Shown here: positions 1 to 53,605 of the stretch, in pieces
Position numbering within the stretch: position 1 is the first letter of the stretch
Layout: every line of letters starts with the position of its first letter
Source: Massalongia carnosa
Taxonomy: Eukaryota
DNA: 64,000 bases
Assembly (NCBI GenBank): GCA_965645245.1
Contig: OZ287078.1
Span: 868,001 to 932,000 of the forward strand
Reading direction: 5' to 3'
Program-made: the position numbers and the translations under genes
The notes under the pieces: generated by a model
Database searches by the model: none
What the model was told of the DNA's origin: nothing
The model's input: the letters and a program-made list of their open reading frames with translations, nothing else

Positions 1-3000
1 TTTGACTAAATTTTCTGATCGAATTGGGTGTTGAATTTTTGAATTCCACCAGTTATAATATGCATTGAAATCTCCACAAATGACGAATTGATTAGTTGAT
101 GTAGGTTGATATTTGATTAAAAGTCGATCGATCGTGTATGTTTCTCGATCATTTTGACTTTTTTCGTTATAAATATTGAAAATCTGCACTTTTCGAACTT
201 CATCAATTGTAATTTCAATAATTTGCATATCGGAATCGTCAATAAGATCCGTTCTAGGCGTGCATTGCAGTTTGGGATTGCATTTGGTGACAAATATAGC
301 TACTCTCGACGGACACGGCTATTTTCGATCATATTTACATCGATTGAAAGATTATAATTCGTCAAAATGCTCAAATCGATGCAATCAACGACAAACGCCA
401 GAACACTTGTTATTGAATTGCATTCACTATTTCGATGAAATTCAAAACATGAAACAAACCATCGATACTACGATCAACTTGAATATGTTGTTTAATACAA
501 AAATCGGAAATGACATTTTGATTAAATTCATTGTCAATAACAAAATCGCGACTAGAAAATGGATACTAGGTCAGCTTGATGACGAGATTTTCGAAACTGG
601 AGGTTGGGGAGAGATCGAACAGTAAAATCAGAAACGATTTATGCTGAAACATTCACGAACTTACAAAGACAAATTTTAAAATCGATATTCTTCGATTACT
701 ATAGGTTGTTACTAACACGGAGTAAAAATGGGGAAAAATTGACAATACATAGATGGGTTATAAAGGGTTGATTTATTTGTAATATAGAAACATATCCTAA
801 AATAGTTTAGTGTCATAACCTTAGGTTGAATACACTTAATGAATAAATAAAAAAAAAAAAAAAAAAATAGCTACTCTCGAGCGATAAGTCGCTATTTTCG
901 GCATAATGCATGTAAATGACGGATGTGATATTGTTTTTTGATCTCGTGTCCATGGTTCCTGAAACAAAACAATATCAATTTGATTTGATAAAGCATATTC
1001 CAAACACGAAGTCATTGCATTCGTTGACCTTCCACAGTTGTGTTGAATAAATTTGACATTGTTAGTATTTTCTATTTTTGCCAACGAATGCTGTCCTGCC
1101 ATTATAAGGCGGATAATTCGTCAGCCGATTTTCGTGGATTTAATGCAGTAAGCATTTCACAATGTTCATCATTTGATTGATGATTTTTATTGCAGTTTGC
1201 ACATTTCACAACAACGTGTGAACATGCAGTTTTCGATTTGCATGTTATGTATTCATGATTACGTGTTTCATGATTTTGTGCACAAATATTTCATTTTGAT
1301 TTGTTTCGACACTGATAATGCTTGTGTCCGAATTTTTGACAATTAATACATTGTGTATTCGGACGAACGGAAGTAAATATTTCCGTGTCACAGTGTTTTC
1401 CCGCGATATTTACGCCTTTTAACGCGTTTAAGGCCTGATTTCGATCGTTAAAAGTCAAAACGACCGAAGAATTGACTTTATTTTCGCGGTCTCGCGCTAG
1501 CCATCTGCGTAAATCGCATAATTCCATGTTAAGGTTGAATTTCTGGATTTCATTTTGCAAATATTGCATATTTTGATCAAACGTTGCACTATTTAATCCA
1601 TGTGCGATCACTTTAAACCAGGATTCGTCTTTTCGAATTCTTTGTGCATCGAACATATGTTCCCATATAGATTTGTTTTCCAACAATTCTGCAGCAGTGT
1701 TTTTCGAACTAGTAGTGAGAGCGATATTCTGACCGGTTTTCGATTTTTCGACCGTGTTGATTACGATATCTAACTTCGCGTTGCTGAATTGCGCGTTGAT
1801 TTGATCTCGAAGTTTCAATGAGTCGATATCGCCGATTTGAATTTTTGGTGTAATTATCAGTCGTCTGAGTTTGATTTCATTTAATTCGTCGGTTTTGTCG
1901 AATTTGTTCGAGGTTTGACTCGAATTTTTCGATCTGGAAACAGTGGTCCAATTTTCGGAATTCGCAGTTGCTTTTCCAAGCATTTGACTCCAGGATGGAG
2001 GCGTGTTATTGACCTTTGTACTCGTAACCCCGGCGGTTTCTTTTCGTGCGTTCGTGTTGACGACTTTATTTGGATTTTCAGTCGTATTGACTTGTTGAAC
2101 CCGAGTCTATTTTCGCGTCGTTTCTGAGATTCGATTACTAGTCTGATCAATTACCTTGTCTAATTTCCAATTCATCATGTCTAGTGTTGTTTTTATATTA
2201 ATTGATTTTTTTGTCAATAAGGAATTGACATTATCAATGACTATTGCTGTTTCTGGGTTTTGATCTAAGACAAATGACTTCAATAACGCGGTTTTAGCCG
2301 TTTTGAGTAATCCAATCGATTGTGCTCGATTGATTGCTTCTTGGCTTTCCTCTACTCGTTCGTCGAATATTTTTCGTTTGTTAAGTTTGATAGGCGGGCT
2401 TAATTCTATATTAGAATTTAACGATGGCATGGGTAGATTGGTAGTAAATTGTCCATATGGGAATTTGGTTGCTTTTGGGGTCGGCGTAGTCGGGGCGGAC
2501 GAATATTCATTTGATTAATCCATAGGCTCGTCAAGTACAGGCGATTTTTCTATAAGTCCTACTGACGAGAGCCCCGGAGATTCCATTTGGGGAGGGTTTT
2601 GAGGAGTGCTCAGGGGTGTTCCCGGGGAGGCTCTCGATATAATTCGTCGAGTCCTAGGGAGTACCGGATTGAACATGATTTAATAAATAAATCGATATGC
2701 CTTTTCAATATCCCTTTTATCACCACCAAATATTTTATTCTGATGTTCCCCGGACGTACTAATCAGAATAGAAGTTTACACCAATTTACAGGTCTAACGA
2801 CTCTAACTTTCCTATCCCTATTTATATGACAATAACTCGTCAAATAAATCCTAATCGGGTAAAATAGACCGTTCCTCGCTTAGGCAGTAAATCTTATTTA
2901 ACCCTTTACCAGACACTACAATAGTTGAAAATAATGAAAGTTTTTTTTTGTTTTTTTGCGATAAAAATAGATCTAAGGCAAGTTAAGATAATAAGAGACT

Positions 3001-3541
3001 TCCTTTTCTGATTAATCTGAAATAGGATCTTTGGTATAATCCTATTCCAGACGTTTTTCCCCTTCTTTTCAGTGATCTGTTGACCGGCCGTTCAATAGAG
3101 ATCGATAAAGCCTAAAATGGTATATGCAGAAATTATACGTGAAATATACTGTGAAAATTTGTGCTTGCGGAAGTTCCCGTAACCTTAAATGAGAAATGAA
3201 CTTCAAAAAAGTTGGTCGTCGCGACAGTTGTTGTACAGTACCGCGACAGTAGATATTTTTTGTAGATAATTCTTGTAGTAATAATTGAGGGTAATGCGAC
3301 AACAGAACAGAAGAAAGTGAGAAAAAAGAGCGATTTTTGGTGATATTGTTGGTATTTGTTATTTTTTATAACTTCTTGAGCGCGCTTTATCACGTCTGTC
3401 GCGTGCGACCAGCAGAAAATATCCGCTGGAGCTTTGCCGGAGCTCTCCTACACTAAATCTGAGTCCGTTTTTGCTCTGGAGGGGCTAAAATGACTGAGAA
3501 AGAGATGTTCAATTGACTGTGAACGTTATAGAGTATCAAAA
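1..3541 (-). mobile_element. Tad1-like LINE copy 1 (5' UTR, disrupted gag-like ORF1, start of ORF2 AP-endonuclease; runs off the left edge)
   Basis: ORF1 pieces 2656-1102 with CCHC knuckles (QCINCQKFGH). ORF2 starts at 1102 (IQHNCGRS...LFQEPW endonuclease motifs). The 5' UTR is colinear with copy 2 up to a shared TATCAAAA end. Contains in-frame stops. Confidence 0.88.
310..866 (+). mobile_element. 5'-truncated LINE (ORF2 C-terminal zinc knuckle, 3' UTR, poly-A) inserted antisense into LINE copy 1
   Basis: GHGYFRSYLHR...C..C...QTPEHLLLNC motif; AATAAA at 842-847; poly-A 849-867; 14-bp TSD ATAGCTACTCTCGA at 296-309 and 867-880. Confidence 0.92.
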
Positions 3542-6056
3542 GTTCCGGTACTTGTGTTTCGATAGGTGGTCTTTTTCAAATGCTCCTTTGAAATCGAGTA
3601 ATAAACATGATAAAACGTTTTTGTTTCGGTTTGCGATTTCGATATCGTGAACGACGTTCATTACCGCATCGATTGGAGAATGATTTGTGCGTCCGCCCAT
3701 TTGTTCGGTATCTAACAAGCTCGAATTTTCGCCGAGGTAGGCTAGTCGATTAGCAACTATTTCTCCGCAATTTTACCAAGATAATTCAGTAATGTATTAA
3801 TTCGATATGATTTTGGCAGCGAGTAGTCAGGTTTATTAGGTTTTTTTAAAACTGCACCGAGTCCTGTTTGCCAGCATAACGGGTGATAACCGATTTGTAT
3901 AAATTTAGAATAAATAGTAAAAAACACGTTTTTCAATGGTTGAAACGATTTTTGAACTATTGTGAAATTGATTGCATCAGGTCCACATGATTTCTTTGGA
4001 TTAAACAAACTAATCGCATTTTGCAATTCATTTTCGGTTAAATTCGGCCAATTGTTGTCATTTTCGCTGTCTTGATTCGTTAAATCTTCAATATTATCGT
4101 CCGTGAACGGGTTTTTTGTGTACATTGCTGACACAAACGCATCGCATTTGTGATCGAATTGAGCATTTAACTTGTTTTCATATTGAATAGGTGGTATTTT
4201 TTCGAACATTTACGGTTTAGTGTATTTATAAGCTGTAAATACGTCTTTATTCGCTGCGTTTTCGAGGAAAGCCAACCAAGTTTGCTGTTTCGCTTTTCGA
4301 ATTGCATGAAAGTACTCGATTCGGCTATGTCTAAATGTTTGATGACTAAAATAGGACGGATTATTCTTCCATTCTCGACGATGTCTACACATGATTTTTC
4401 GAAGTCCGGTTAAATCTTGCGATCACCAATTTTTCGATTTTGCGCATATTTTTGTCTTCGGAATAAACATTTCAGCCGCGTTTTTGATAACGTTTTGCAA
4501 ATATAACGCTGATTCATCAAATTGATAATTGTTCAATAGACTTTGTATTTGGGACTCGTAGTTTATTGCATTTTCGTCTAGAAACTTCGCGAATTTATCC
4601 CAATCGGCTTTATTGCAGTTGTATTTATTCGATAATGCGGTTGTGTGTGACGTCAAGTTCTTGAAAGACGCGATAAGTTCAAATCGGATAACTTCAAGAT
4701 CTGAACCCGAGACTGCGTTTTCATCGATTGACCAATTTGTAATTGCGTTTTCGATTTTAGAATTTGCAAATGTTAAATCAATAATAGATGAAGAGTTTCC
4801 TGAATGAGCAAAAAATGTATATAGATCAGGCGTATTTATCAAACTACATTTGTTTAATTTTAACCATTTGACTAGATTTTCTGATCGAATTACATTTTGA
4901 ATCTTCGAATTCCATCAGCTATGATTTGCATTAAAATCTCCACATATGACAAATTGATCAGTTGATATAGGTTGATATTTGACTAAAAGTCGATCGATTG
5001 TATATGTTTCTCGATCGTTTAGACTTTTTTCATTGTAGAGGTGAAAGTTCTGCACTTTTCGAACTTTATCAATTGTAATTTCGATAATTTGCAGATCAGA
5101 ATCGTTAATAAGATCCGATCTAGGCGTGCATTGTAATTTTGGATTGCATTTTGAAACGAATATAGCTATTCTCGGCCGATAAGTCGCTATTTTCGGCATA
5201 ATACATGTGAATGACGGACGGGAAATTGTTTTTTGATCTCGCGTCCATGGTTCCTGAAATAAAACAATATCAACACGATTTAATACTGTATATTCCAGAC
5301 ACGAAATCATTGCATTCGTTGACTTTGCACAATTCTGTTGAATAAATTTGACTTTATGTGTATTTTCGATATTTGTCAACGAATGTTGTCCCGCCATTAA
5401 CCAAGCATTAATTCATCATTCGATTTTCTAGGATTTAGCGAGATAAATATTTCGCATCCTACATCGTTCGATTGATGATTTTTGTTGCAATTGACGCATT
5501 TCAGAATCGAATGTGCGCATGCGATTTTAGACTTGCATGTTGTGCATTCATGATTATGCGTTTCATGACTTTGTGAGCATAAATTGCATTTTGCCGGACT
5601 TTTGCATTGATAATGCTTATGTCCAAATTTCTGACAATTAATACATTGCGTGTTTGGACAAACGGAAGCAAATATTTCCGTGTCACAATGTCTACCCGCG
5701 ATATTCACGCCTCTTAACGCGTTTGAAGCTTGATTTTGATTATTGAAAGTCAAAACTACCGACGACGTGACTTTGTTTTGACGATCCCGAGCAAGCCATC
5801 TTGGTAAATCGCATAGTTGCATATTCGAATTGTATTTTTCGATTTCGGTTTGCAAATATTGCATGTTATTATCGAATAACTAGATATTTACTCTGTGTGC
5901 TATGACTTTAAACTAAGATTCGTCTTTTTGAATTCTTTGTGATTCGAAAATGTGTTCCCATGAATATTTATTTTTCAACAATTCTTCGGCATTGTTGTCA
6001 GGGCTAGTGGTGAGAACGATATTCTGACCGGTTTTGGACTTTTCAACAGTATTGAC

Positions 6057-39947: not shown

Positions 39948-40943
39948 TCATACAGTATCCAGCACCGTCTCTTTGAACTCCCTCTCAACCTTCTGCCCTT
40001 GCTCGTCTGTCGTCGATTCACCGTGAAGATTGAGGAGAGCGCCCAGGTCAAATTTAGGTGCTTTCAAGAGCTTGACTTTCCTAATGTGCACCTGGGGAAT
40101 GTCAGCATGATGTCGATAGTGTTGCTTGAGTCTTTATTTGCAGGCAGTGCATTGAATACGAACGTTTTGTAGTGGATAGATGCCTTGAGTGGCCTTCTCG
40201 ATTTCACGACCAATAACCTCTGGAATCAACTTAGTTGTCAACTGGGAAAGTGTACAGCTTGAGGCTTCGCGCTGAATGATCTCAACCATTTTTTTACGGA
40301 TAGCGCGGATTTGAGAGGTGGCAGCGTATGTGGTCTTCTTGATCTGGTTGGGTCGTCGCTTTGTAAATGCAATTGCAAAAAGGCGTAGGAGGTAGTCGTC
40401 AGTGGTCTTGACAGTAATGTTCGCCTCAATAAGCGTCTGCCATTTGCGGACAAGAGACCTCAGTTTATCCGAGGTAAAATCTAGTCCATGGAAATTTGTA
40501 AGGCAGTTTTTCCCCTGCACCTCGTCGACCCTAAGCTTCACCTTGCGGAATGCGTGGTCCTCATCCTTCTGTAGATCGGCGAGCGAGACTTCAAAAATCC
40601 TTCCTTTTAGAGCATCGTTCGCATTCTTAAGGCCGGTCGTCCTGTTCACCAGCGTCTTGCCAACACTAAATTAATTAGCAGGCCGATAATACTCGATAAC
40701 GGATGAGAGTCCTACTCGCGGACTTGGAACGTAGACGGCGCCTTGATGACTGTCAGAAAAGTAAAAGATTTTGGGAACGCTCGAAAATACCTTGACAGAA
40801 TACCAATCTTTGCGGGTAAACGGATCTTGTCTCTTCTTTAGCCCCTTCTTGCTCTTTGAAAGACGCTTGTTTCTGGTACAGTCATTAGCTACAAAGTGCA
40901 GACCGTAACCCGTTTAGGATTTCACTGACTTTCCAACAGCCAT
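39948..40943 (-). CDS. RPS1: 40S ribosomal protein eS1 (S1/S3a)
   Basis: MAVGKNKRLSK..., [41 protein letters not shown]. Confidence 0.97.
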
Positions 40944-41083
40944 GATGGCGGTGTAGTGGGGGGTGTAAGTTGATTGCGATTAATCTGCAAAGTTTATCAA
41001 AGTTAGAGTATTATCGACAAATATTCGACGGGTTAAGCTAACATTTCGCTTAAATTCAGGTTGAGGGCAATAACCCTAGCTAT

Positions 41084-42407
41084 CACGCGCTCGCAGAAAA
41101 AAAAGCGACACCCAAAAATTTCACCCCATCAAAAATCTCCCCTTTTCACCAACAACCAGCATCATGGAACGACCCAACACACCTGAACCTAACTCTTCTG
41201 AATCTAGAATGTACTATCCTACTCCTACAAAAGCTAAAATTCAAGGAGCCGTTGAATTCTGCGATCGCATGGGCATTCTCTACTTCAAAGAGGACGTTTT
41301 TCGTACGTTTAATGTGAGTCATCATGCCGGCTGGAGAGCTTTAAATCAGGAGAGCTCGCGAAGACATCACAATAAGCCTGATCTTCCTGAAACGCGAGGG
41401 CGAAAGGCTATTGTTACTCCGCAAAAAATTCGCGAAATGGAGCGCATCATAGAGGAGGAGGGATTTGAGGCGCGTGCTCTCACCTGGGCACAGTTGGGCT
41501 ATGAGGTGGAACTTGAATGCTCGGGACGAATCATACAAATAGCTATGGGAACGATTGACTATCACAAATGCGTCGCATGCGGAAAGGGCTGGGTCAATGA
41601 GAAAACAGCTCGTCGTCGCTTTGATTGGGCCAAAGTTATGTTGAAAAGATATCCTGAAAAGTCTGACTGGCATAACATACGATTCAGTGATGAGGTGCAT
41701 TTCGGATGGGGTCCTCAAGGTAAACTGTCCATCATTCGCCAGCCGGGCGAAAGATATTGTCAGGACTGTATACAGCAAGCAGAAGAACCAGATTCTAGAG
41801 ATGTGAAACGGCATCATTGCTGGGCAGCTGTTGGTCACGATTTCAAGTCAGATATTCATTATTACAATGTGCCGGGCAATGCCAATGGAAAGATGAGTCA
41901 ACGGGTGTATATTGATCAGATTTTGGAGCCGGTGGTCAAGCCGTGGCTTGATCAGGGGCATGACTTCGTGCTTGAAGAAGATGGGGATTCGGGTCATGGA
42001 CCGAGCAAATCAAACATCGTACGCACTTGGAAGGAGACAAATCATCTAAACCATTATTTCAATTGTGCTTCATTACCTGCTTTATCTCCTGTGGAAAACA
42101 GCTGGTCAGTTCCGAAGCAACATCTTCATAAACATCCTCATTGGGACGATGCGACGACCAAGGAGCTAATTAATGAAGGATGGGATCGTGTTTCTCAGGC
42201 ATTTATTAATGAAAAAGTTGATGAAATGCCTGATCGGTTGCAAGCCGTCATAGATGGCGAGGGCCAGATGACTGGCTACTAGTTAGATGAATATAATCAG
42301 CTTTTCATGATGATTAAATGCTGGTTGTTGGTGCTGGTTGTTGATGAAAAGGGGGGATTTTGTAGGGTAAAATTTTTGGGTGTCGCTTTTTTTTCTGCGA
42401 GCGCGTG
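41084..42407 (+). mobile_element. Tc1/mariner-type DNA transposon copy 1 (1324 bp)
   Basis: 38-bp perfect TIR CACGCGCTCGCAGAAAAAAAAGCGACACCCAAAAATTT, extending imperfectly; single intact transposase ORF; flanks GCTAT and CCTGT. Confidence 0.95.
41164..42282 (+). CDS. Tc1-like DDE transposase, 372 aa, DD37E spacing
   Basis: W..IRFSDE, CWAAVG, LEEDGDSGH, LSPVENSW and MPDRLQAVI..G..TGY motifs. Confidence 0.92.
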   Translation: MERPNTPEPNSSESRMYYPTPTKAKIQGAVEFCDRMGILYFKEDVFRTFNVSHHAGWRALNQESSRRHHNKPDLPETRGRKAIVTPQKIREMERIIEEEGFEARALTWAQLGYEVELECSGRIIQIAMGTIDYHKCVACGKGWVNEKTARRRFDWAKVMLKRYPEKSDWHNIRFSDEVHFGWGPQGKLSIIRQPGERYCQDCIQQAEEPDSRDVKRHHCWAAVGHDFKSDIHYYNVPGNANGKMSQRVYIDQILEPVVKPWLDQGHDFVLEEDGDSGHGPSKSNIVRTWKETNHLNHYFNCASLPALSPVENSWSVPKQHLHKHPHWDDATTKELINEGWDRVSQAFINEKVDEMPDRLQAVIDGEGQMTGY

Positions 42408-43180
42408 CCTGTCACGCGGGTGAAAAAAAAATATGCAACGTTGGCCGAGGTTAACCCCAGACCACCCACCGAAATCTTCTAAATAATCAAACAAAATCCC
42501 ATACATTATGATACTCCTCTGAAGGCTAAATTGCAAGGCGCGCATTAATATCTTTCTTCTAAAGGTATTCCACACGACGTGCGCGACATTTTCAAAGAAT
42601 TTGATGTTAGATCTGAAAGAGCAGAATATAAAGGGTCAGAAATATATGACACTTGTTGAATATCCAATTCCTACCAGCACAATGAACACCTATCAGTACG
42701 ATGAACATAGCACCTACGGCTGCCCTAGATGGACAGATCATCTACGGAAACCGTAGATGCCGCATTAGGCTTAGTCCCAAGATAAGATAAGATCACCTCG
42801 CTTAGAAGGGGGTGACCAGTAATAGGAAAAGATTGCTGCCTAGCAACTCTTCATCCTTACCATCACGGTCATACATACCTTTATTATTACATAGCCATAT
42901 AGCCATAGTCATACACCTATTTCAACAGGTTATGAGCCCGGAAGGGTGCTATCGATTTAAACGAATCGAAACTTTTAATCCGCAGCTTCGCAGTGCAATC
43001 AGCTAAGCATCGTTCCTATTCAATAAATCGTAGACACATGACTAAAATCTTTCTGTGTCTTTAGAAACGATCCCTTAAATCACATCAATCAGTTCTCTCT
43101 TCTGTACACAGCGATTTCTTGTCAGAAGCACAAAAACTGCGTGTTAGAAAGAGCATGAACACATTGATCGTACTACACCG

Positions 43181-44739
43181 AAGCCCTCGGACACCAAAGA
43201 GCTTGCTAAGCTCGATGGTCGAAGGCACTCAAGCCCTCGGACACCAAAGAGCTTGCTAAGCTCGATGGTCGAAGGCACTCAAGTCCTCGGACACCAAAGA
43301 GCTTGCTAAGCTCGATGGTCGAAGGCAATCAAGTCCTCGGACACCAAAGAGCTTGCTAAGCTCGATGGTCGAAGGCAATCAAGTCCTCGGACACCAAAGA
43401 GCTTGCTAAGCTCGATGGTCGAAGGCACTCAAGTCCTCGGACACCAAAGAGCTTGCTAAGCTCGATGGTCGAAGGCAATCAAGTCCTCGGACACCAAAGA
43501 GCTTGCTAAGCTCGATGGTCGAAGGCAATCAAGTCCTCGGACACCAAAGAGCTTGCTAAGCTCGATGGTCGAAGGCACTCAAGTCCTCGGACACCAAAGA
43601 GCTTGCTAAGCCCGATGGTCGAAGGCACTCAAGCCCTCGGACACCAAAGAGCTTGCTAAGCTCGATGGTCGAAGGCACTCAAGTCCTCGGACACCAAAGA
43701 GCTTGCTAAGCCCGATGGTCGAAGGCACTCAAGCCCTCGGACACCAAAGAGCTTGCTAAGCTCGATGGTCGAAGGCACTCAAGTCCTCGGACACCAAAGA
43801 GCTTGCTAAGCCCGATGGTCGAAGGCACTCAAGCCCTCGGACACCAAAGAGCTTGCTAAGCTCGATGGTCGAAGGCACCCAAGTCCTCGGACACCAAAGA
43901 GCTTGCTAAGCTCGATGGTCGAAGGCACCCAAGTCCTCGGACACCAGAAGAGCTTGCTAAGCTCGCTGGTCGAAGGCACCCAAGTCCTCGGACACCAAAG
44001 AGCTTGCTAAGCTCGCTGGTCGAAGGCACTCAAGTCCTCGGACACCAAAAGAGCTTGCTATGCTCGATGGTCGAAGGCACTCAAGTCCTCGGACACCAAA
44101 AGAGCTTGCTATGCTCGATGGTCGAAGGCACTCAAGTCCTCGGACACCAAAAGAGCTTGCTATGCTCGATGGTCGAAGGCACTCAAGTCCTCGGACACCA
44201 GAAGAGCTTGCTATGCTTGATGGTCGAAGGCACCCAAGTCCTCGGACACCAGAAGAGCTTGCTACGCTCGATGGTCGAAGGCACTCAAGTCCTCGGACAC
44301 CAGAAGAGCTTGCTACGCTCGATGGTCGAAGGCAATCAAGTCCTCGGACACCAGAAGAGCTTGCTACGCTCGATGGTCGAAGGCACCCAAGTCCTCGGAC
44401 ACCAGAAGAGCTTGCTACGCTCGATGGTCGAAGGCACCCAAGTCCTCGGACACCAGAAGAGCTTGCTACGCTCGATGGTCGAAGGCACCCAAGTCCTCGG
44501 ACACCAGAAGAGCTTGCTACGCTCGATGGTCGAAGGCACCCAAGTCCTCGGACACCAAAGAGCTTGCTAAGCTCGATGGTCGAAGGCGCTCAAGTCCTCG
44601 GATACCAAAGAGCCCGCTAAGCTCGATGGTCGAAGGCGCTCAAGTCCTCGGACACCAAAGAGCTCGCTAATCTCGATGGTCGAAGGCACCGAAGTCCTCG
44701 GACACCAAAAGAGCTCGCTAAGCTCGATGGTCGAAGGCA
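43181..44739. repeat. Tandem array of 31 x 50/51-bp units in the Copia 5' leader
   Basis: Unit AAGTCCTCGGACACCA(G)AAGAGCTTGCTAAGCTCGATGGTCGAAGGCACTC; no spacers. Confidence 0.97.
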
Positions 44740-45221
44740 AAAAAAGTATATTGCTGGCCCTGAGCGCCCCATTGGTTCAAAAATCATCAAAGCGTCAGTT
44801 CACCCGTGGTTGAGTTCTGGACACGCAAACAATACAAAATCCCTCGGACATCAAAGAGCTTAGTAAACTCATTGATCGAAGGCACAAAGACCTTTCTTTT
44901 TGGCAATTATGCCTCCTTAAGGCACTAGATGAGATTGTGCGGCAGTTGCCTCTTATTATCTAACCGGCCTAAGGCCGGTTAAATCAATTGGAATAATCAA
45001 TTTGCTTTTGGTCAATTGGACCCTTGAAAAAGCCGGAGTTGAAATTCTCATCATGGCAAACAAGCATGTTAAGCTAACAGGTTTCTCTGTTGAGACATCA
45101 GAGTGGACACTGCCTAAGGAGGGACTGTTTTTTCCTTGTCTATAAGAAAGGTCACAGATCCACATTCTTTCAGTCACTACTAAGTTTCTCGCCTTGTTCA
45201 ATTGCTCCCCATTCTCCCATT

Positions 45222-48200
45222 ATGTATATCATAGATACGTCACATCTTTTGGAGAAAGCCGAAAGATATTCGGCATGGGCAAGCTATACGAAGGGCATTC
45301 TGCTCAAGAACAACTGCGAAGGAGCCATTCTGGAGAATCAATCAGAAATCACCGCTGAAACCATCGAGGAAGGTTTAATACAAGCAGGCTTCGACGCCAA
45401 AGGTCTTTCAGTCAGCATCTTGGTAAAAGAACTGCGTGACTAGAAGAATAGACAGAAGGCCGAGATGACCAAGGCTATAGGAATCATTCACGGATTAGTT
45501 GCGGAGTGCCATTATAGCCTCATCGACAACAAGAATGTGGCAGAAATGTGGAAAATCCTGAAGGATAGATTCCAAGATATAGCACCAATGAGCATCAGCG
45601 ACATCATTCTGAAGGTTAGTTCCAAGAAGATGACCGACTTCGAGACGACCAGTCTATACTGTGCATATTACGAGAGCGCTTTAAACAAGATTAAAGGAAT
45701 GCTGGACGACAAGGCCAAAGTGGATGTGCATACCGTGGAGTTTATGCTTAAGGGAATGATGCTGGGTAACACCAGACGTCTATTCCCCATTGATAGCCCA
45801 ACTTCGACGAGATTGAACATACGAAACCACAAACCTGTCGGAAGCAATGAAGACCATTATTGCTTATTATGTCAACATGAAAATCACCAAGGCACTTCAT
45901 ATCAGCACACCTGACTCAAGAGGTCGAGCCCCATCAGGGAACTGCACCTTCTCTTAATGTGTCAAGAGAAAGAACACTCGTCATTGGCTAGATACCTGTT
46001 TGCCGAAGTTTCCACAGTTAAAAAGACATAGAAGTTCGCTCGAATCCGGAAGAGCAAAGGAACAAAAGACTACCTCGTTAGAAACGAAGGCGGACTTATA
46101 TCATACATCAACCAACATTTCAACGACCATTGACACTCCAGATTTGAGGATGCATTTGAGCAAAGTGGACGAGGACACCTATCAAGGACTGGACGTCATT
46201 ATCTGTCAAATCAAAACTCACTACATGGCATGGAAGGCTTGGTCATCTCAACATAGCAACGTGTCGAAAATATCTGAAAACGCTAGACATAACGTACGAT
46301 GACGATATCAACCACGGTTGGTTTTGCCATGCATGCGAAATGGGAAAAGCCAAAAAGATATATAACCGAACACGGCAAGAGAAGGCCACAGAGCTCTTTC
46401 AAAAGATAAACTCTGACCTAGTGGGACTAATCAAGCCATCAGGACTTCTTGAAGAACTTTACCTCTTTCCTTTCACCTGTGATGCTAGCAGATACACTCA
46501 TGTCTATACCGGACACAAGACGAGTGAATGGTTTGATCACTTGTTGACATACTACAGCATGGCTCAAAACAAATCCGGAAAGGCTAAACTCATAAGCAGT
46601 TTTCGCACTGACTTCGGCGCGGAGCTTCGCAGTCACAAGTCAGACGTTTGGTCCTTGGAACAAGGCATAACGTTTGAAACAGCTGCTCCATACTCTCAAG
46701 ATGAAAACGGAGTCGCGGAACGAATGGGCAGAACCATCATAGACATGACAAGATGCAGTGTCATTGCCAGAGACATTCCAGACTACTTGTAGGCAGAAGT
46801 GGTTCTAGCCATGGTTCACACCAAGAACGTCAGACCAACCAACGCCTTAGCAGGTAAAACCCCGTATGAGATCTTCGAGAAGAAGTCACCTAAGCTGGAT
46901 CACCTGAGAATTCTCGGATCTACAGTCTATGCATTAATTCACGAAGAAGAGCGAAAAGGAATAAACAGCAAGGCTGCTAAATTTTCTCCGAGGGCTCAGA
47001 AAGGAATCCTGTGTGGATATGACAGAAGCACCATCTATCGCGTCTTTATGGAAAAAGACTACAAGGTCATTAGGGTCAAGAACTTACGAATTCATGAAGA
47101 CGCCACATTCAAAGATGGGATACATTACCTACCGAGTCCATGGAACCCGAACATATAGTCTTAAGTGGCAAATGAGTATTCAAGCTGAAACGAGACGTAA
47201 ATGAAAAGACCGTTCGCTTTAAAGCCAGATGGGTTGTCAAGGATATCTCCAACAATACCGAGTAGATTTCGATCAAACCTTTGCATCTATGGCCAAACAA
47301 TGGCTTTTCGCTTGCTATTCGCGTTAGCTGCTCATCATTATCTGCACATCGAGCGACTGGATATAGTGACAGCTTTTCTGAACGGTCTCATTATCAACTC
47401 ATCTATGTCCACATGCCGAAAGGATATGACACAGCTGGCATGGTGTGCAGGTTGAACAAAGCCCTATACGGTTTGAACAGTCTCCGCGTCCCTGGTATGA
47501 ACGACTGTCAGCTTTTCTATTGAGCAAATTAGGATTGGAGAAACTCCACGCAGATCATAACATTTTCGTCACACCTCAAGGGATAAAAGGACACATTGTT
47601 ACCTCTTTCGTTGACGATTTGAACATCATAGGCCCAAGGGTTCCCCGATGATCACCGAAGTCAAGAAACAGCTCAAGCTAGCTTTCAAGATGGTAGACAT
47701 GGGACCAATCAGCTACTATCTAGGCCTTAAAGTCGAACGAGATCGAGTCAACAAAACCATAAAGCACTCCCATGCGAGAAGGCTGTCTCTTCATCAATGA
47801 ATTTCAGGACTCCGACAAGGACATAAAGCAATATCAAACCATGGTCGGATCCATCACGTTCGCAATGATAGAAACCAGGCCAGACGTAGCTTTCGCAACG
47901 TCCGTAATCAGTCGAAATGCAAAGAATCCAGGCAAAACACATATGGAAGCGGCCAAACACATTCTCAGATACCTTAGCGGTACCAAGAATAGAGACATCA
48001 CCTTCGACAAATAGCAGCGAAAATCCAACTGGGGTTATGTGTTCATGCTGAACAATGGACCAATAAGCTGGTGTTCCAAAAGACAAATAACCGTCACATT
48101 GTCATCAACCGAAGCAGAGTATATGGCACTCACCTTAGTAGCAAAGGAGGCAACATGGCTACGTTTACTGATGACCGAACTCGGATTGACGACTTCTGAT

Positions 48201-48482
48201 GACGGATCCCCGACAATAAACGTGTTAAGAGGAGAAGGCACAATTGCATTGAAAGGCGACAATCAAAGCGCCATAGCACTGGCCAATAACCCCGTATTAC
48301 ACTCCAGGACCAAGCATATCGACATTCAGCACTACTTGATACGAAACGAGGTGCTAGAAGGAAGAATCGAACTCACCTATGTTCCGACCGAAGACATGAT
48401 TGCAGATGGACTGACAAAAACCCTCACGCACGTCAAGTTCTTCTCCTTTATCAGACAGCTCAACATGGACAAACAGACATGA
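45222..48482 (+). pseudogene. Copia gag-pol, fragmented by stops, frameshifts and deletions
   Basis: Integrase (RTDFGAE, ENGVAER), RT (LDIVTAFLNG, LNKALYGL, FVDDL) and RNase H ([26 protein letters not shown]). Confidence 0.9.
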
Positions 48483-49198
48483 GAGGTAAAGAAGTTCAAC
48501 CACGGTTGAATCCACGATGGAAACAAGTACTGGTAGGACTTGAGGGGGGGTGTTGAATATCCAATTCCTACCAGCACAATGAACACCTATCAGTACGATG
48601 AACATAGCACCTACGGCTGCCCTAGATGGACAGATCATCTACGGAAACCGTAGATGCCGCATTAGGCTTAGTCCCAAGATAAGATAAGATCACCTCGCTT
48701 AGAAGGGGGTGACCAGTAATAGGAAAAGATTGCTGCCTAGCAACTCTTCATCCTTACCATCACGGTCATACATACCTTTATTATTACATAGCCATATAGC
48801 CATAGTCATACACCTATTTCAACAACACTCGAGGTCGCAATTCAAGCTGTGATTGACAGTCACGGTGCAATAACTGTGTAATTAGTGAATTTTAGATGGA
48901 ATTTAGGGGGAATTGGAAGGGTTTTAGGTGGGGTGATCATGGGGTAACCTCGGCCCACGTTGCATCTTTTTTTTTCACCCGCGTGCCTGTGTGTGCACTC
49001 TGCTACTTATTGTTTAAATCGCCACATGGCATGATTACCAATAAACAGTACAGTAACTCTGGAATGAAGTAGCCATATGTAATCAGAGCCTTCGTTTCGA
49101 GTTCAGGACTTCAACCATTGTTACCAAAACAAATGGTAGGGAGACAACCATGATAAATATTAAATTCTAGCTGTGAAAGTAGTTTCCTTGGATCAATC

Positions 49199-51340
49199 AT
49201 GGAGACAGGAAGCTCGCTGGAACAGGCTACGTACCATACCACACTTAATCAAATTCTATCGACGCTCAAATCCATTCAATCAGATTATCGGCAAGTTTCT
49301 GCGGCTGTAGAAGCCATTGATGGGCGTGTCAATATTCTTACAAGTTCTAAGCTACACTACGATGCCGAAGAGGATAAGCAGCAGAGTATTAATGGGACGG
49401 TGGCCTTAGAAAGCCCCGTACAGGATATCCATAATGAGTCGGCCGAATCCTCTGCTAAAGTTTCTCCCAGACCGCTGGTCATAAATAGGGGTCCTGATCT
49501 GTCACAGCCAAGAAAAGCTACTCCAGGTGGTCGAATCTCATCATCGACGTCCTCCTCACGGATCATTTTAACTACGTATCCGGGCCAGTCAGGAATTGAT
49601 CCGTTGGTAATGAAATGGGGCCACAAGGATCCATTGCAGAGGGGCCCTGTAGTGGTTTCACGTAGCCAAAGTACAATCAGACGTCGTAACGGTAGGGGAA
49701 CTGGTAATTGTATCTAAATCGCATGCTTCTAACTCGCCATTCTCACAGCAATTGGTGCTCATGGTGGTTCGTACTCGATTTACCATGCTTTGGCCGTCGC
49801 CAGCAAGAACCTCGATGTTGAACACAAGCCTGACTTCACGAACACTGAGCCAGCAGTGGCCCTCGGTCCGTTTCCTCAATGGGCCGATGCGAAGAAGATA
49901 GTTTCAATGGATCCACTTGGGCATCTTGCTCCTTGGCTGTTCACGAAGTTAATTCATGAAGAGGACGTTCACATTAGGCCGACAATTGCAATCACTAAAG
50001 CCCATATGAAGCTTCCAGAAATTGAACAGAGCGTTCGAAATGGCCGGCTTCAAGTGGACGGGAAAATATGTCTGAACGAGACTGGGGAACTGGCTGTCAC
50101 AAAGTTTGCTGTCGAGCCTGTCTGGCATCTGCCTGGGGTTGCCGAGCGATTTGGAATCGGTAGGTCTTTGGTATTTCGCACGAAAAATAATTTCTTTCTT
50201 AGAGAAGCGGCCATAGAATGAGGCTTCAGCTAAGCGGAAGTAGATGAAGGACTTTTAAGGCGGTCACTGTTCGAAAATACTGGGGGTTCGTTCCCAGAAC
50301 TCATCACTCGAAGTGATATCAAGTTATTTCTCCCTCCAATTGGGGGTTTGACCGTCTATTGCTTCGGAGATCCCGCAAAAATGTCAGATCCAAATGTTAG
50401 GCTGGCACTTCGCGTGCATGACGAGTGCAATGGAAGTGATGTTTTTGGGTCCGATATATGCACATGTCGACCATATTTAATATTTGGTGTTGAGGAAGCC
50501 GTCAAGGAAGCCCAGAAAGGTGGCAGTGGAGTTGTCATATATTTTCGGAAAGAAGGACGGGCATTAGGAGAAGTCACCAAGTATCTAGTATATAATGCTC
50601 GTAAGTTCTATCGCGACCATTTTAGAGACTACTGGCACGTCATGCTGACGAATGGAATTGCAGGCAAGCGAGGGACAGATCGTGAGCAAGTTTTGAACTA
50701 CCTTAACAGTCTTGAAACTGACTTGTGGCGATTAAGGGGCAAGCGAATATTTCAAGAGAACCGAGAATATTGCTGGGGTCAAGGTGGGCAAATTGCAAAG
50801 TCATTTAGCATCCGATGCTAACTATTTAAGGATATGCGCTTCCAAGCTCTAATGCCAGACGTACGTAGTAAAAGCAGTTCTTTAACTTACAGGATTGATA
50901 GCTGTGCCAGGTTTTGCATTGGTTAGGTATCATCAAGATTGATCGCATGCTTAGCATGTCAAAGTAAGCCAAGCCATAGCCATTAGTTACAAGGTTCCTA
51001 TGCTAAATATTGTGAGTCATTAGCATGAAATATGATGCTATAGTCGAGCAAGGCATTTCCATCCATGAGCGGGTCCCTATCCCCGAAGAACTGATACCGG
51101 AAGACAGCCGTGTAGAGATCGATGCTAAGATCCATGCGGGGTACTGTAAGCACATAGACCTCAACGAAGTTATGCGTAGAGTAACACTAACAAATGCTTC
51201 AGTCACCACTGGGAGAGTCATGAGTATGGCGGAATTATCTGAAGTTCAAGGTCGAGCCTGGGACGATGTTGATGTAAGCGAAAGAACCACTGCATCTATA
51301 ACTCTTCGATTGCTAACATTGCTGTTCCTAACAGCATTGA
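49199..51340 (+). CDS. URC1: GTP cyclohydrolase II-like uracil-catabolism protein (URC1/urg1 type), multi-exon
   Basis: RIILTTYPGQSGIDP, RRRNAIGAHGGSYSIY, LRVHDECNGSDVFGSDICTCRPYL and EIDAKIHAGY. Confidence 0.85.
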
Positions 51341-51896
51341 ATCCACCAACCGTTTCCTTGAATTCAGTATGACAAACCCCGTCTCCCACCATATAACCCA
51401 ACGTCTCTATGCCCAAACAATATGCGAATAAAGTAAACTAGAAACCCATAGGAAAATGGCATTACGAGGGGACATTTTGCTCGGTCCAGAATTGCTCAAT
51501 GCTTGAAGTATCTCTCTTACTCAAGATCCCTTGCCGTGCTGTGAAAAGTGTCTCTGACAACAAGTTGTACCGAGCTTATAGGCCTGATTTTTCAAGCTGT
51601 GATGCTCGTAAGGAAAAGCTCATGTATTTAAGAATATAATGACTGCTCAAGAGAGAATTAATTACCATATCATTTACCCCTTGAAAGTTTGTAGAAAATA
51701 TCACAGAGATCCATTCAATCAATTGGATCGCAGTTCGAAGACAATTATAGAGAAAGGCCTACTGATATTTGAATCGACTTCCAAATAATGAGGGAAGACC
51801 TTTCTAATCGACCTTTTTTATGAGTTTATACCTCGATAACAAATTAAATCACTCACTTAGCTTTATGAGGGTACTCTCCGTAACCGCATACATAGC

Positions 51897-53219
51897 CACG
51901 CGCTCGCAGAAAAAAAGCGACACCCAAAAATTTTACCCTACAAAATCCCCCCTTTTCATCAACAACCAGCACCAACAACCAGCATTTAATCATCATGAAA
52001 AGCTGATTATATTCATCTAACTAGTAGCCAGTCATCTGGCCCTCGCCATCTATGACGGCTTGCAACCGATCAGGCATTTCATCAACTTTTTCATTAATAA
52101 ATGCCTGAGAAACACGATCCCATCCTTCATTAATTAGCTCCTTGGTCGTCGCATCGTCCCAATGAGGATGTTTATGAAGATGTTGCTTCGGAACTGACCA
52201 GCTGTTTTCCACAGGAGATAAAGCAGGTAATGAAGCACAATTGAAATAATGGTTTAGATGATTTGTCTCCTTCCAAGTGCGTACGATGTTTGATTTGCTC
52301 GGTCCATGACCCGAATCCCCATCTTCTTCAAGCACGAAGTCATGCCCCTGATCAAGCCACGGCTTGACCACCGGCTCCAAAATCTGATCAATATACACCC
52401 GTTGACTCATCTTTCCATTGGCATTGCCCGGCACATTGTAATAATGAATATCTGACTTGAAATCGTGACCAACAGCTGCCCAGCAATGATGCCGTTTCAC
52501 ATCTCTAGAATCTGGTTCTTCTGCTTGCTGTATACAGTCCTGACAATATCTTTCGCCCGGCTGGCGAATGATGGACAGTTTACCTTGAGGACCCCATCCG
52601 AAATGCACCTCATCACTGAATCGTATGTTATGCCAGTCAGACTTTTCAGGATATCTTTTCAACATAACTTTGGCCCAATCAAAGCGACGACGAGCTGTTT
52701 TCTCATTGACCCAGCCCTTTCCGCATGCGACGCATTTGTGATAGTCAATCGTTCCCATAGCTATTTGTATGATTCGTCCCGAGCATTCAAGTTCCACCTC
52801 ATAGCCCAACTGTGCCCAGGTGAGAGCACGCGCCTCAAATCCCTCCTCCTCTATGATGCGCTCCATTTCGCGAATTTTTTGCGGAGTAACAATAGCCTTT
52901 CGCCCTCGCGTTTCAGGAAGATCAGGCTTATTGTGATGTCTTCGCGAGCTCTCCTGATTTAAAGCTCTCCAGCCGGCATGATGACTCACATTAAACGTAC
53001 GAAAAACGTCCTCTTTGAAGTAGAGAATGCCCATGCGATCGCAGAATTCAACGGCTCCTTGAATTTTAGCTTTTGTAGGAGTAGGATAGTACATTCTAGA
53101 TTCAGAAGAGTTAGGTTCAGGTGTGTTGGGTCGTTCCATGATGCTGGTTGTTGGTGAAAAGGGGAGATTTTTGATGGGGTGAAATTTTTGGGTGTCGCTT
53201 TTTTTTCTGCGAGCGCGTG
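51897..53219 (-). mobile_element. Tc1/mariner-type DNA transposon copy 2 (1323 bp), inverted relative to copy 1
   Basis: Same TIRs (one A fewer in a homopolymer); identical protein; flanks ATAGC and ACAGG. Confidence 0.95.
52021..53139 (-). CDS. Tc1-like DDE transposase, identical to 41164-42282
   Basis: Identical 372-aa translation in the ORF track. Confidence 0.92.
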   Translation of the reverse strand: MERPNTPEPNSSESRMYYPTPTKAKIQGAVEFCDRMGILYFKEDVFRTFNVSHHAGWRALNQESSRRHHNKPDLPETRGRKAIVTPQKIREMERIIEEEGFEARALTWAQLGYEVELECSGRIIQIAMGTIDYHKCVACGKGWVNEKTARRRFDWAKVMLKRYPEKSDWHNIRFSDEVHFGWGPQGKLSIIRQPGERYCQDCIQQAEEPDSRDVKRHHCWAAVGHDFKSDIHYYNVPGNANGKMSQRVYIDQILEPVVKPWLDQGHDFVLEEDGDSGHGPSKSNIVRTWKETNHLNHYFNCASLPALSPVENSWSVPKQHLHKHPHWDDATTKELINEGWDRVSQAFINEKVDEMPDRLQAVIDGEGQMTGY

Positions 53220-53605
53220 ACAGGTACTTGGTAACTTCTTGGTAACTTCTTTGAAATACTTACCTAACTTACTTGGAGTACAGTGCAGAGTGCCTACTCT
53301 ATATGATAACGATCGCTTTGATAGCAGTTAAATAATCGCACAAGCGATTCAATCTAGTTGATTGTTCCGTCGAAACTTTCCCTTGTATTTCTGGCTCAGC
53401 GCACTCCAATCCAACTCACTTGGTCTATCTACTACGACTACTATCAACTATCCGATTTTCATGCGAGCTTTGACGAATATAAGTTTGGAGCAGTTATTTT
53501 CCCAATCTGTTTCAGGCCTGTGCACGCTTTCAATGAATTCACTTCCCTACCGATAGGTAATTACCTGAAATAACTCAAAAGAGTTGGCAGGTTGCTCTTC
53601 CCACC

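Follow-up and report, generated by a model that had tools for sequence, protein, structure and literature searches.

The shared TA target is one of the grounds on which the IS630-Tc1-mariner superfamily of transposons has been united (PMC7325037; this and the other papers cited by PMC number are represented here by excerpts of their text). A 64,000-nucleotide stretch of DNA from the lichen-forming fungus Massalongia carnosa (assembly GCA_965645245.1, contig OZ287078.1, forward-strand positions 868,001 to 932,000; hereafter "the window", in whose coordinates all positions are given) raises the question of whether elements with a transposase of the Tc1 kind can insert without that target. The window carries two nearly identical elements of about 1.3 kb, copies A and B, together with a smaller relative, element C, and an initial annotation made from the sequence alone had proposed that this family duplicates 5 bp of target DNA instead of TA. 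Our analysis of the window and of related loci in metagenome contigs indicates that these are cut-and-paste transposons with a transposase derived from the Tc1 family, which duplicate 5 bp rather than TA and prefer a palindromic 11-bp target, a reading to which we assign a probability of roughly 0.85. The elements and the repeats beside them are arranged as follows:

41079–41083, no strand: target duplication 1, copy one (GCTAT), with its partner ATAGC, inverted, at 51892–51896
41084–42407, plus strand: copy A, full Tc1-like element of 1324 bp with ends CACGCG...CGCGTG
41084–41133, plus strand: left terminal inverted repeat (TIR) of A, 50 nt, 92% complementary to 42358–42407
41164–42282, plus strand: transposase open reading frame (ORF) of A, 372 amino acids, D176/D273/E311 (DD37E)
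42358–42407, minus strand: right TIR of A
42408–42412, no strand: target duplication 2, copy CCTGT, shared by A (right end) and C (left end)
42413–48985, no strand: element C, non-autonomous and similar to a miniature inverted-repeat transposable element (MITE), 397 bp without its nested insert
42413–42467 and 48931–48985: TIRs of C, 55 nt, 89% alike, starting CACGCGGGTGA
48986–48990, no strand: target duplication 2, copy CCTGT, at the right end of C
48991–51891, no strand: single-copy segment between C and B, with a GTP cyclohydrolase II-type gene on the plus strand
51892–51896, no strand: second copy of target duplication 1, ATAGC (reverse complement of GCTAT)
51897–53219, minus strand: copy B, full element of 1323 bp
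52021–53139, minus strand: transposase ORF of B
53220–53224, no strand: target duplication 2, copy ACAGG (reverse complement of CCTGT)

As the initial annotation had read from the letters, all six element ends in the window start with CACGCG, none of them abuts TA (0 of 6 flanking dinucleotides), and a direct CCTGT repeat flanks 42413–48985. The elements thus stand between GCTAT and CCTGT (A), CCTGT and CCTGT (C), and ATAGC and ACAGG (B). The hexamer CACGCG alone is common, with 17 matches in the window where 15.3 are expected; the terminal 20-mer and 32-mer are found within the window at these ends only, with 0 expected. A TIR profile built exclusively from outside relatives recovers, across the 64 kb, the six ends and no others (E ≤ 10). 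Two further CACGCG pairs, 27205/28387 and 63038/63506, were rejected as elements after their sequence had been read. Copies A and B lie in inverted orientation, each with 50-nt TIRs that are 92% alike and an intact 372-codon ORF, and their sole difference is one T in a homopolymer run (1 indel in 1324 bp). A single ORF framed by short TIRs, with a total of about 1.3 kb, is the layout of the Tc1 family, and the relatives measure 1.24–1.56 kb.

Whether the pentamers next to these ends reflect a general behavior was addressed in 80 relative loci with flanks, which were obtained by scanning metagenome contigs with the family alignment. The best inverted repeat around each ORF was sought by script; 52 loci reached a TIR score of at least 18, 45 of these were non-redundant, and 42 had at least 8 nt of flank and constitute the usable set. 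Trimming of the TIR by 0–4 nt was allowed in the main test, because a partly palindromic target over-extends the TIR. An exact direct repeat of length 5 is present at 20 of the 42 loci and in 28 of 1722 mismatched left/right pairs (1.6%). At length 4 the corresponding counts are 1/42 and 35/1722, and at length 6 they are 1/42 and 6/1722. With zero trimming, repeats of length 5 are found at 13 loci, of length 4 at one and of length 6 at none. TA stands next to both TIR ends in none of the 42 relatives (offsets −4 to +4). The elements with a verified duplication are 44–64% identical to the window protein, indicating that the 5-bp trait is common to a deep clade; two frameshifted elements, L076 and L079, are left out of this range, as their single-frame identity of 23–25% is meaningless (best segments, 47–48%). 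The termini of the verified elements read CACGCGG, CACGGGG, CAAGCGG, CAAGTGG, CAAGCTG, CTCGCGG, CACCCTG and CTCCCCC. Taken as sequence evidence, these repeats support the view that 5-bp duplication is a property of the family and not a quirk of the three window elements.

Eight relatives (L001, L002, L004, L018, L028, L030, L032 and L036) combine stop-free frames over the matched region with perfect or near-perfect TIRs and 5-bp duplications, and are candidates for currently active elements. Six others (L010, L037, L044, L054, L056 and L059) have degenerate terminal bases, mostly C-to-T or G-to-A, e.g., CACGC versus CATGT in L010 and CTTGG.. versus CATTC.. in the L037 group. This terminal degeneration looks like repeat-induced point mutation, and hides the ends from a simple TIR search.

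Alignment of 25 reconstructed target sites (23 from relatives and the window's two) gives an 11-bp consensus, T(−3) A(−2) N | C C W G S | N T(+2) A(+3), where the central five positions are the duplicated pentamer. A(−2) is present in 15 of the 25 sites, the first two C of the pentamer in 17 and 19, W at the third position in 22 and G at the fourth in 15, while T(+2) and A(+3) each occur in 17; binomial p values of the target positions range from 3e-4 to 6e-8. The consensus is palindromic about the central W, which fits the expectation for a two-fold symmetric transpososome. TA thus occurs once on each side of the site, at −3/−2 and +2/+3, and is not part of the duplicated sequence. The 25 pentamers comprise 21 different sequences, with CCTGG, CCAGC and CCTAC each recurring. 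In the window, the two reconstructed empty targets of A and B (41074–41091 compared with 51884–51896, and 53220–53231 with 48986–48998) are alike at 10 of 13 positions (TA-S-CT-R-TGT-R-TGC), and the predicted empty sites with a single pentamer would read AACCCTA-GCTAT-GTATGCGG and CCAAGTA-CCTGT-GTGTGC. The pentamer CCTGT was used by two different window elements, B and C. Together with the 10/13 likeness, this double use suggests either a tight choice of target or homing beside an existing element end.

Contigs of four public runs were compared with the window over 48900–53400 only; the runs holding the single-copy segment are labelled "lichen metagenome" and with two coded organisms. Contig depth changes from single-copy to repeat at 51896/51897, and the repeat ends at about 53219–53224, near 53224/53225, i.e., at the two boundaries of B. 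Record 2 of run X1 spans 48980–51939 and shows the same order of C end, single-copy segment and B end as the window; X1 represents a second individual, with six base differences in 2.9 kb. Record 32 of X5 and contigs of X2 and X4 run from inside B into the right flank of the window. Depth inside B is 5–25 times that of the flanks in X2 and X4, a summed contig depth that is not a copy number and suggests that the B-type element is present in many copies. No contig of the four runs bridges an empty site within the compared region, and these contigs speak neither for nor against the duplication.

Two features of the same contigs were seen at the ends of B. Record 8 of X1 (19.5 kb) matches the last 50 nt of B plus ACAGG and then leaves the window sequence after 53224. 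X1 has no cover at 53279–53400, X2, X4 and X5 continue as the window does, and the unitigs of X2 and X4 branch at 53224/53225. Record 8 could stem from a further insertion at this pentamer or from a rearrangement there; alternatively, it could come from a second locus that has both the end and the pentamer in common with B. In X2 and X4, a contig of single-copy depth links 51948 to 53170 with a change of strand, both positions being slightly inside the TIRs of B; we read this as a probable assembly-graph effect of shared TIR words.

The flanks of A and B do not match as direct repeats, and their order on the plus strand is GCTAT [A>] CCTGT [C] CCTGT ... ATAGC [<B] ACAGG. With the interval between the two copies reversed in silico, the order becomes GCTAT [A>] GCTAT ... 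ACAGG [C] ACAGG [<B] ACAGG. The order restored in this way is that of two ordinary insertions with pentamers of their own, plus C as a putative insertion in one copy of the second pentamer. The earlier suggestion that these flanks resolve into two 5-bp pairs is thereby borne out: they form two reverse-complement pentamer pairs, each with a chance of 1/1024, and the sixth base matches in neither. A probable sequence of events would begin with the two insertions and their duplications, GCTAT and ACAGG (= CCTGT). The segment between the inverted copies would then have been flipped through recombination between them, or the pair would have arisen by a one-step inverting transposition, leaving GCTAT[A>]CCTGT ... 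ATAGC[<B]ACAGG. C would have inserted at the same CCTGT pentamer, accounting for the three CCTGT copies. We infer in this way both the inversion of 48991–51891 together with C and the order of events.

For the history of A and B alone, a single inverting event is possible, though we hold it to be the less probable route. Both copies would then be products of one intramolecular or sister-chromatid "alternative" transposition into the ACAGG site, in which the element is copied, the segment inverted and each duplication split in the same manner. The identity of A and B, except for one homopolymer base, would suit such an origin, as would the flanks: x[E>]y' ... x'[<E]y is the pattern expected of replicative or alternative-transposition inversions, and is known from IS, Tn3 and Mu as well as from Ac/Ds. 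Tc1/mariner elements, in contrast, are non-replicative cut-and-paste elements, and two recent copies that recombined would leave the same letters. Moreover, the second individual, X1, already has the order of C end, single-copy segment and B end, so that the two routes can be neither dated nor separated.

The transposase motifs pointed out in the initial annotation are all present in the 372-amino-acid protein: FSDE at 174, EEDGD at 271 and SPVENSW at 308, placing the catalytic residues at D176, D273 and E311. The 37 residues between D273 and E311 (DD37E) are within the 34–41 that characterize the Tc1 family, and in each of the three alignment columns at least 90% of the family carry the conserved residue. 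A word-indexed search with the window protein returned 329 relatives at E ≤ 0.001 among 984 candidates scored; the named ones are few and all ascomycetes (Rutstroemia, Bimuria, Clathrospora, Colletotrichum and Ophiobolus). In the family alignment of 32 members, Pfam DDE_3 is detected in 30 and HTH_Tnp_Tc3_2 in 15. The family profile matches the catalytic domain of Sleeping Beauty (5cr4) with an E value of 9e-15 and, against 1.84 billion representatives of clusters at 50% identity, finds 448 at E ≤ 1e-30 and 3721 at E ≤ 1e-10. An AlphaFold model of the transposase (mean predicted local distance difference test score, pLDDT, 74) has 5cr4 as its best Foldseek match (E 4e-9, TM score 0.74 on the target), followed by Mos1 and SETMAR; the top three, 5cr4, 3hot and 5hoo, have E values of 4e-9 to 3e-8, and 2f7t and 3f2k are matched as well. 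At the N terminus, the best HTH_Tnp_Tc3_2 match among the 15 relatives has an E value of 3e-10, and that of the window protein is 0.15; the predicted model is helical over residues 22–128, and the DNA-binding domain of Tc3 (1u78) is matched weakly (E 0.19). Profile, Pfam and predicted fold together support a transposase of the Tc1 kind within the IS630-Tc1-mariner superfamily, as had been proposed at the outset.

The sequence before the catalytic glutamate had also been flagged, as LPALSPVE in place of the usual SPDLNPIE. The letters are right, but the change belongs to this copy only: the family consensus keeps the classic SSPDLSPIENCW, and LPALSPVENSW is a private departure of the window protein. 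Residues L304, A306 and V310 stand where 31 of 31 aligned relatives have S, D and I, and yet both copies are identical and the element is apparently multi-copy. LPALSPVE was rejected as the cause of the 5-bp duplication, as relatives with the normal motif make 5-bp duplications too.

Several observations weigh against the proposed 5-bp duplication or parts of the picture drawn here. Under the automatic rule, 22 of the 42 relatives lack an exact 5-bp repeat. Five of these (L010, L037, L044, L052 and L059) show a pentamer by eye after correction of degenerate or over-extended termini, and there are near misses with the pentamer displaced by 2–3 nt (L021 and L050), with 6 bp (L033) or with a match of 4 out of 5 (L013). 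About a dozen are without any repeat, e.g., L015, L019, L038, L040, L049, L064, L065, L072 and L073; these may be copies that are old or have been rearranged, or the result of recombination as in A and B. The same site also occurs in several assemblies (L002 = L007 = L023, plus the right end of L006; L054 = L056), which reduces the automatic count to 18 independent sites. The window protein itself reaches only E 4.6e-4 and 20.5 bits with DDE_3, below the cut-off of 28.6, and differs from the family in 7 of the 89 columns that are conserved, three of these differences (S304L, D306A and I310V) lying next to the catalytic E, so that its own activity is not assured. The two targets in the window carry TA at −2/−1, abutting the pentamer, and not at −3/−2. 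No empty allele was seen for any insertion, and the duplication is accordingly read from occupied sites. The inversion is deduced from ten letters and was not seen in another genome.

If the family inserted at TA like other Tc1/mariner elements, the pentamers would be chance matches or the true ends would lie elsewhere. TA is indeed enriched near the sites, at −3/−2 and +2/+3 and, in the two window sites, immediately next to the pentamer. However, these flanking TAs are not duplicated, TA is found beside both ends in none of the 42 relatives, the ends are fixed by TIR symmetry, by the profile from outside elements and by the breaks in contig depth, and the repeats peak at length 5 alone (20 of 42 loci compared with one each at lengths 4 and 6, and a control of 1.6%). 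We therefore consider insertion at TA extremely improbable. A further explanation for the 5-bp repeats would be target choice: a motif already standing twice at the target would be selected and nothing duplicated. The strong target preference is in favor of this, as are the control matches (1.6% compared with about 0.5% expected for five offsets), the recurrence of three pentamers and the double use of CCTGT in the window. Against it, the pentamers are mostly different from one another (21 sequences among 25), and a tandem pentamer would be needed at every target, where none was seen in the 10 nt on either side. Such pre-existing repeats are very unlikely to account for the data.

The outcome of insertion also invites a different classification, in which the elements would belong to the CACTA/Mirage/Chapaev/Transib group and only resemble Tc1. 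Members of this group have CA..TG termini and duplications of 2–5 bp (PMC12730594), and CAC...GTG ends with 5-bp duplications would suit it well. The protein, however, is a Tc1-type DDE_3 transposase by profile, Pfam and predicted fold, and the listed fold matches include no structure of RAG1/Transib or EnSpm. By eye, the inner part of the TIR is similar to the mimp/impala pattern, and the published mimp pattern, CAGTGGG, itself starts with CA. Membership in that group accordingly has a negligible probability in our view.

Returning to 5-bp integration by a Tc1-type transposase, a changed strand-transfer stagger, as suggested in the initial annotation, would provide the chemical cause. In this model, the two 3'-OH ends would attack the opposite strands of the target at phosphates with a spacing of 5 bp and not 2 bp; by symmetry, the point of attack on either strand would lie between N(−1) and C(1). 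Gap repair would then leave a 5-bp duplication of variable sequence rather than TA. The transposase would act as a symmetric dimer, each half of which reads one half-site of the target. Relative to Mos1 and Sleeping Beauty, the dimer would have its active sites at a greater distance on the target, or the target would have a different bend. The TA on each side may be a retained outer contact of the half-sites, left in place as the distance between the two active sites grew.

Element C had been described as a deleted relative, and this description has to be replaced, as C is no deleted copy of A. Without its nested insert, C is a 397-bp MITE-like element with no coding capacity seen. Its TIRs, starting with CACGCGGGTGA, are of a type found in several outside relatives and differ from the A/B type (CACGCGCTCGCAG); C belongs to a sister subfamily. 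The length of 42413–48985 is due to a long terminal repeat (LTR) retrotransposon nested inside, which makes up the bulk of the interval:

42654–48824, plus strand: LTR retrotransposon with identical 274-bp LTRs (TGTTG..CAACA)
42654–42927 and 48551–48824: its two LTRs
42649–42653 and 48825–48829: its own 5-bp target duplication, ACACT

ORF pieces of the retrotransposon match rve and SH3_retrovirus (integrase-type). Just after its 5' LTR there are two adjoining tandem arrays, at about 43026–44836, with periods of 50 and 51 bp; they consist of 20 and 11 registered copies with a core that is 94–98% alike, and contain open frames of 186–188 codons in two frames. Outside the elements, a gene for ribosomal protein S3Ae lies at 40137–40649 on the minus strand, and positions 1–6000 of the window have a G/C content of 35–38%, compared with 43–50% over the remainder.

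Among known systems, the closest likeness is to impala and mimp of Fusarium oxysporum: both are fungal, with about 1.3 kb, a single ORF of 340–370 amino acids and short TIRs, and both have given rise to MITE derivatives. DD37E spacing is documented for the impala group within the Tc1 family (PMC7325037) and is found here too. The impala-type TIR pattern is CAGTGGG..GCAA[TA]AA (PMC5579170, PMC7576743), and the published mimp patterns resemble, by eye only, the inner TIRs of our family, e.g., CACGCGGGTGCAATAAC / CATGTGGGTGCAATAAC in L010 and CAAGTGGGTGACAAAATAA in L066. The outermost 3–5 nt are different, with CACGC or CAAGC here and CAGTG in mimp, and, unlike in impala, none of the 42 relatives abuts TA and the duplication is 5 bp long. 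Judged from these sequences, the family looks like a relative of impala with changed outermost TIR bases and a changed integration geometry. The fungal Tc1-mariner elements described in PMC4188875, PMC2836289, PMC9977792 and PMC10379824 are TA elements of the larger pogo/Fot type or belong to other DD37E groups.

With Sleeping Beauty, Tc1 and Mos1, the family has in common a homologous catalytic domain by profile (5cr4), a matching predicted fold and the motif order ..SDE.., ..DGD.., ..SPDLSPIEN.. in its consensus. Sleeping Beauty has DND at the position of DGD. In contrast to these elements, which are DD34E or DD34D, duplicate TA and target bare TA, the family is DD37E, duplicates 5 bp and targets TAN|CCWGS|NTA. 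TA insertion, which belongs to the definition of the Tc1 family, was found at none of the six window ends and at both ends of none of the relatives. Exceptions to a 2-bp TA duplication exist within the superfamily: Tc4/Tc5 (TNA), the ciliate TBE/Tec elements and Zator have other duplications, all of 3 bp, which again differ from the 5 bp found here. Zator is named as an IS630-Tc1-mariner superfamily in PMC7386202.

The 5-bp duplication and CAC...GTG ends shared with Transib are a likeness of outcome only. The transposases are unrelated: Pfam finds only DDE_3 and HTH_Tnp_Tc3_2, the fold matches Tc1/mariner, and no match of the RAG1/Transib type is among the profile, Pfam and fold matches. A closer parallel for a changed duplication length within one superfamily, with the transposase type kept, is offered by hAT5, hAT6 and hAT7, hAT lineages with duplications of 5, 6 and 7 bp instead of 8 (PMC12730594). 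In that superfamily, however, the change from 8 to 5–7 bp involved no loss of a sequence-specific hallmark, whereas here a fixed TA is replaced. A literature search, with Repbase, Dfam and closed-access papers outside its range, found no Tc1, mariner, IS630, DDE_3 or impala element paired with a 5-bp duplication, and the excerpt of PMC5751038 contains nothing on a 5-bp duplication of the Tc1 type. No paper found by the search quotes the TIR words of the family as TIRs, and the matches listed are primers.

At the level of this literature (outside Repbase and Dfam), a lineage that duplicates 5 bp inside the otherwise known Tc1/mariner kind appears to be new. Duplication length and the TA target are diagnostic characters of IS630-Tc1-mariner elements in classification schemes and annotation software, so that programs which require TA beside an element will overlook this family and its MITEs in fungal genomes or set their limits wrongly. 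At about even odds, a whole Tc1-family clade across the ascomycetes has switched from 2-bp TA to 5-bp staggered integration at TAN|CCWGS|NTA, and would be the first IS630-Tc1-mariner lineage without the TA hallmark. If true, such a switch would represent a natural experiment on the strand-transfer stagger in a dimer of DDE transposases, with several intact, apparently young copies at hand. The stagger mirrors how far apart the two active sites stand on the bent target within the transpososome, and a close relative of Sleeping Beauty and impala, with its 5-bp duplication and its palindromic, GC-rich core, allows a direct comparison to ask which parts of the protein set this geometry. Tc1-family transposases are used as gene-transfer tools, and a different, more selective target profile could have practical interest. 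For Massalongia carnosa itself, the inverted pair appears to have flipped about 9.5 kb, including a gene and the MITE C, and would thus exemplify transposon-mediated rearrangement in a lichen-forming fungus.

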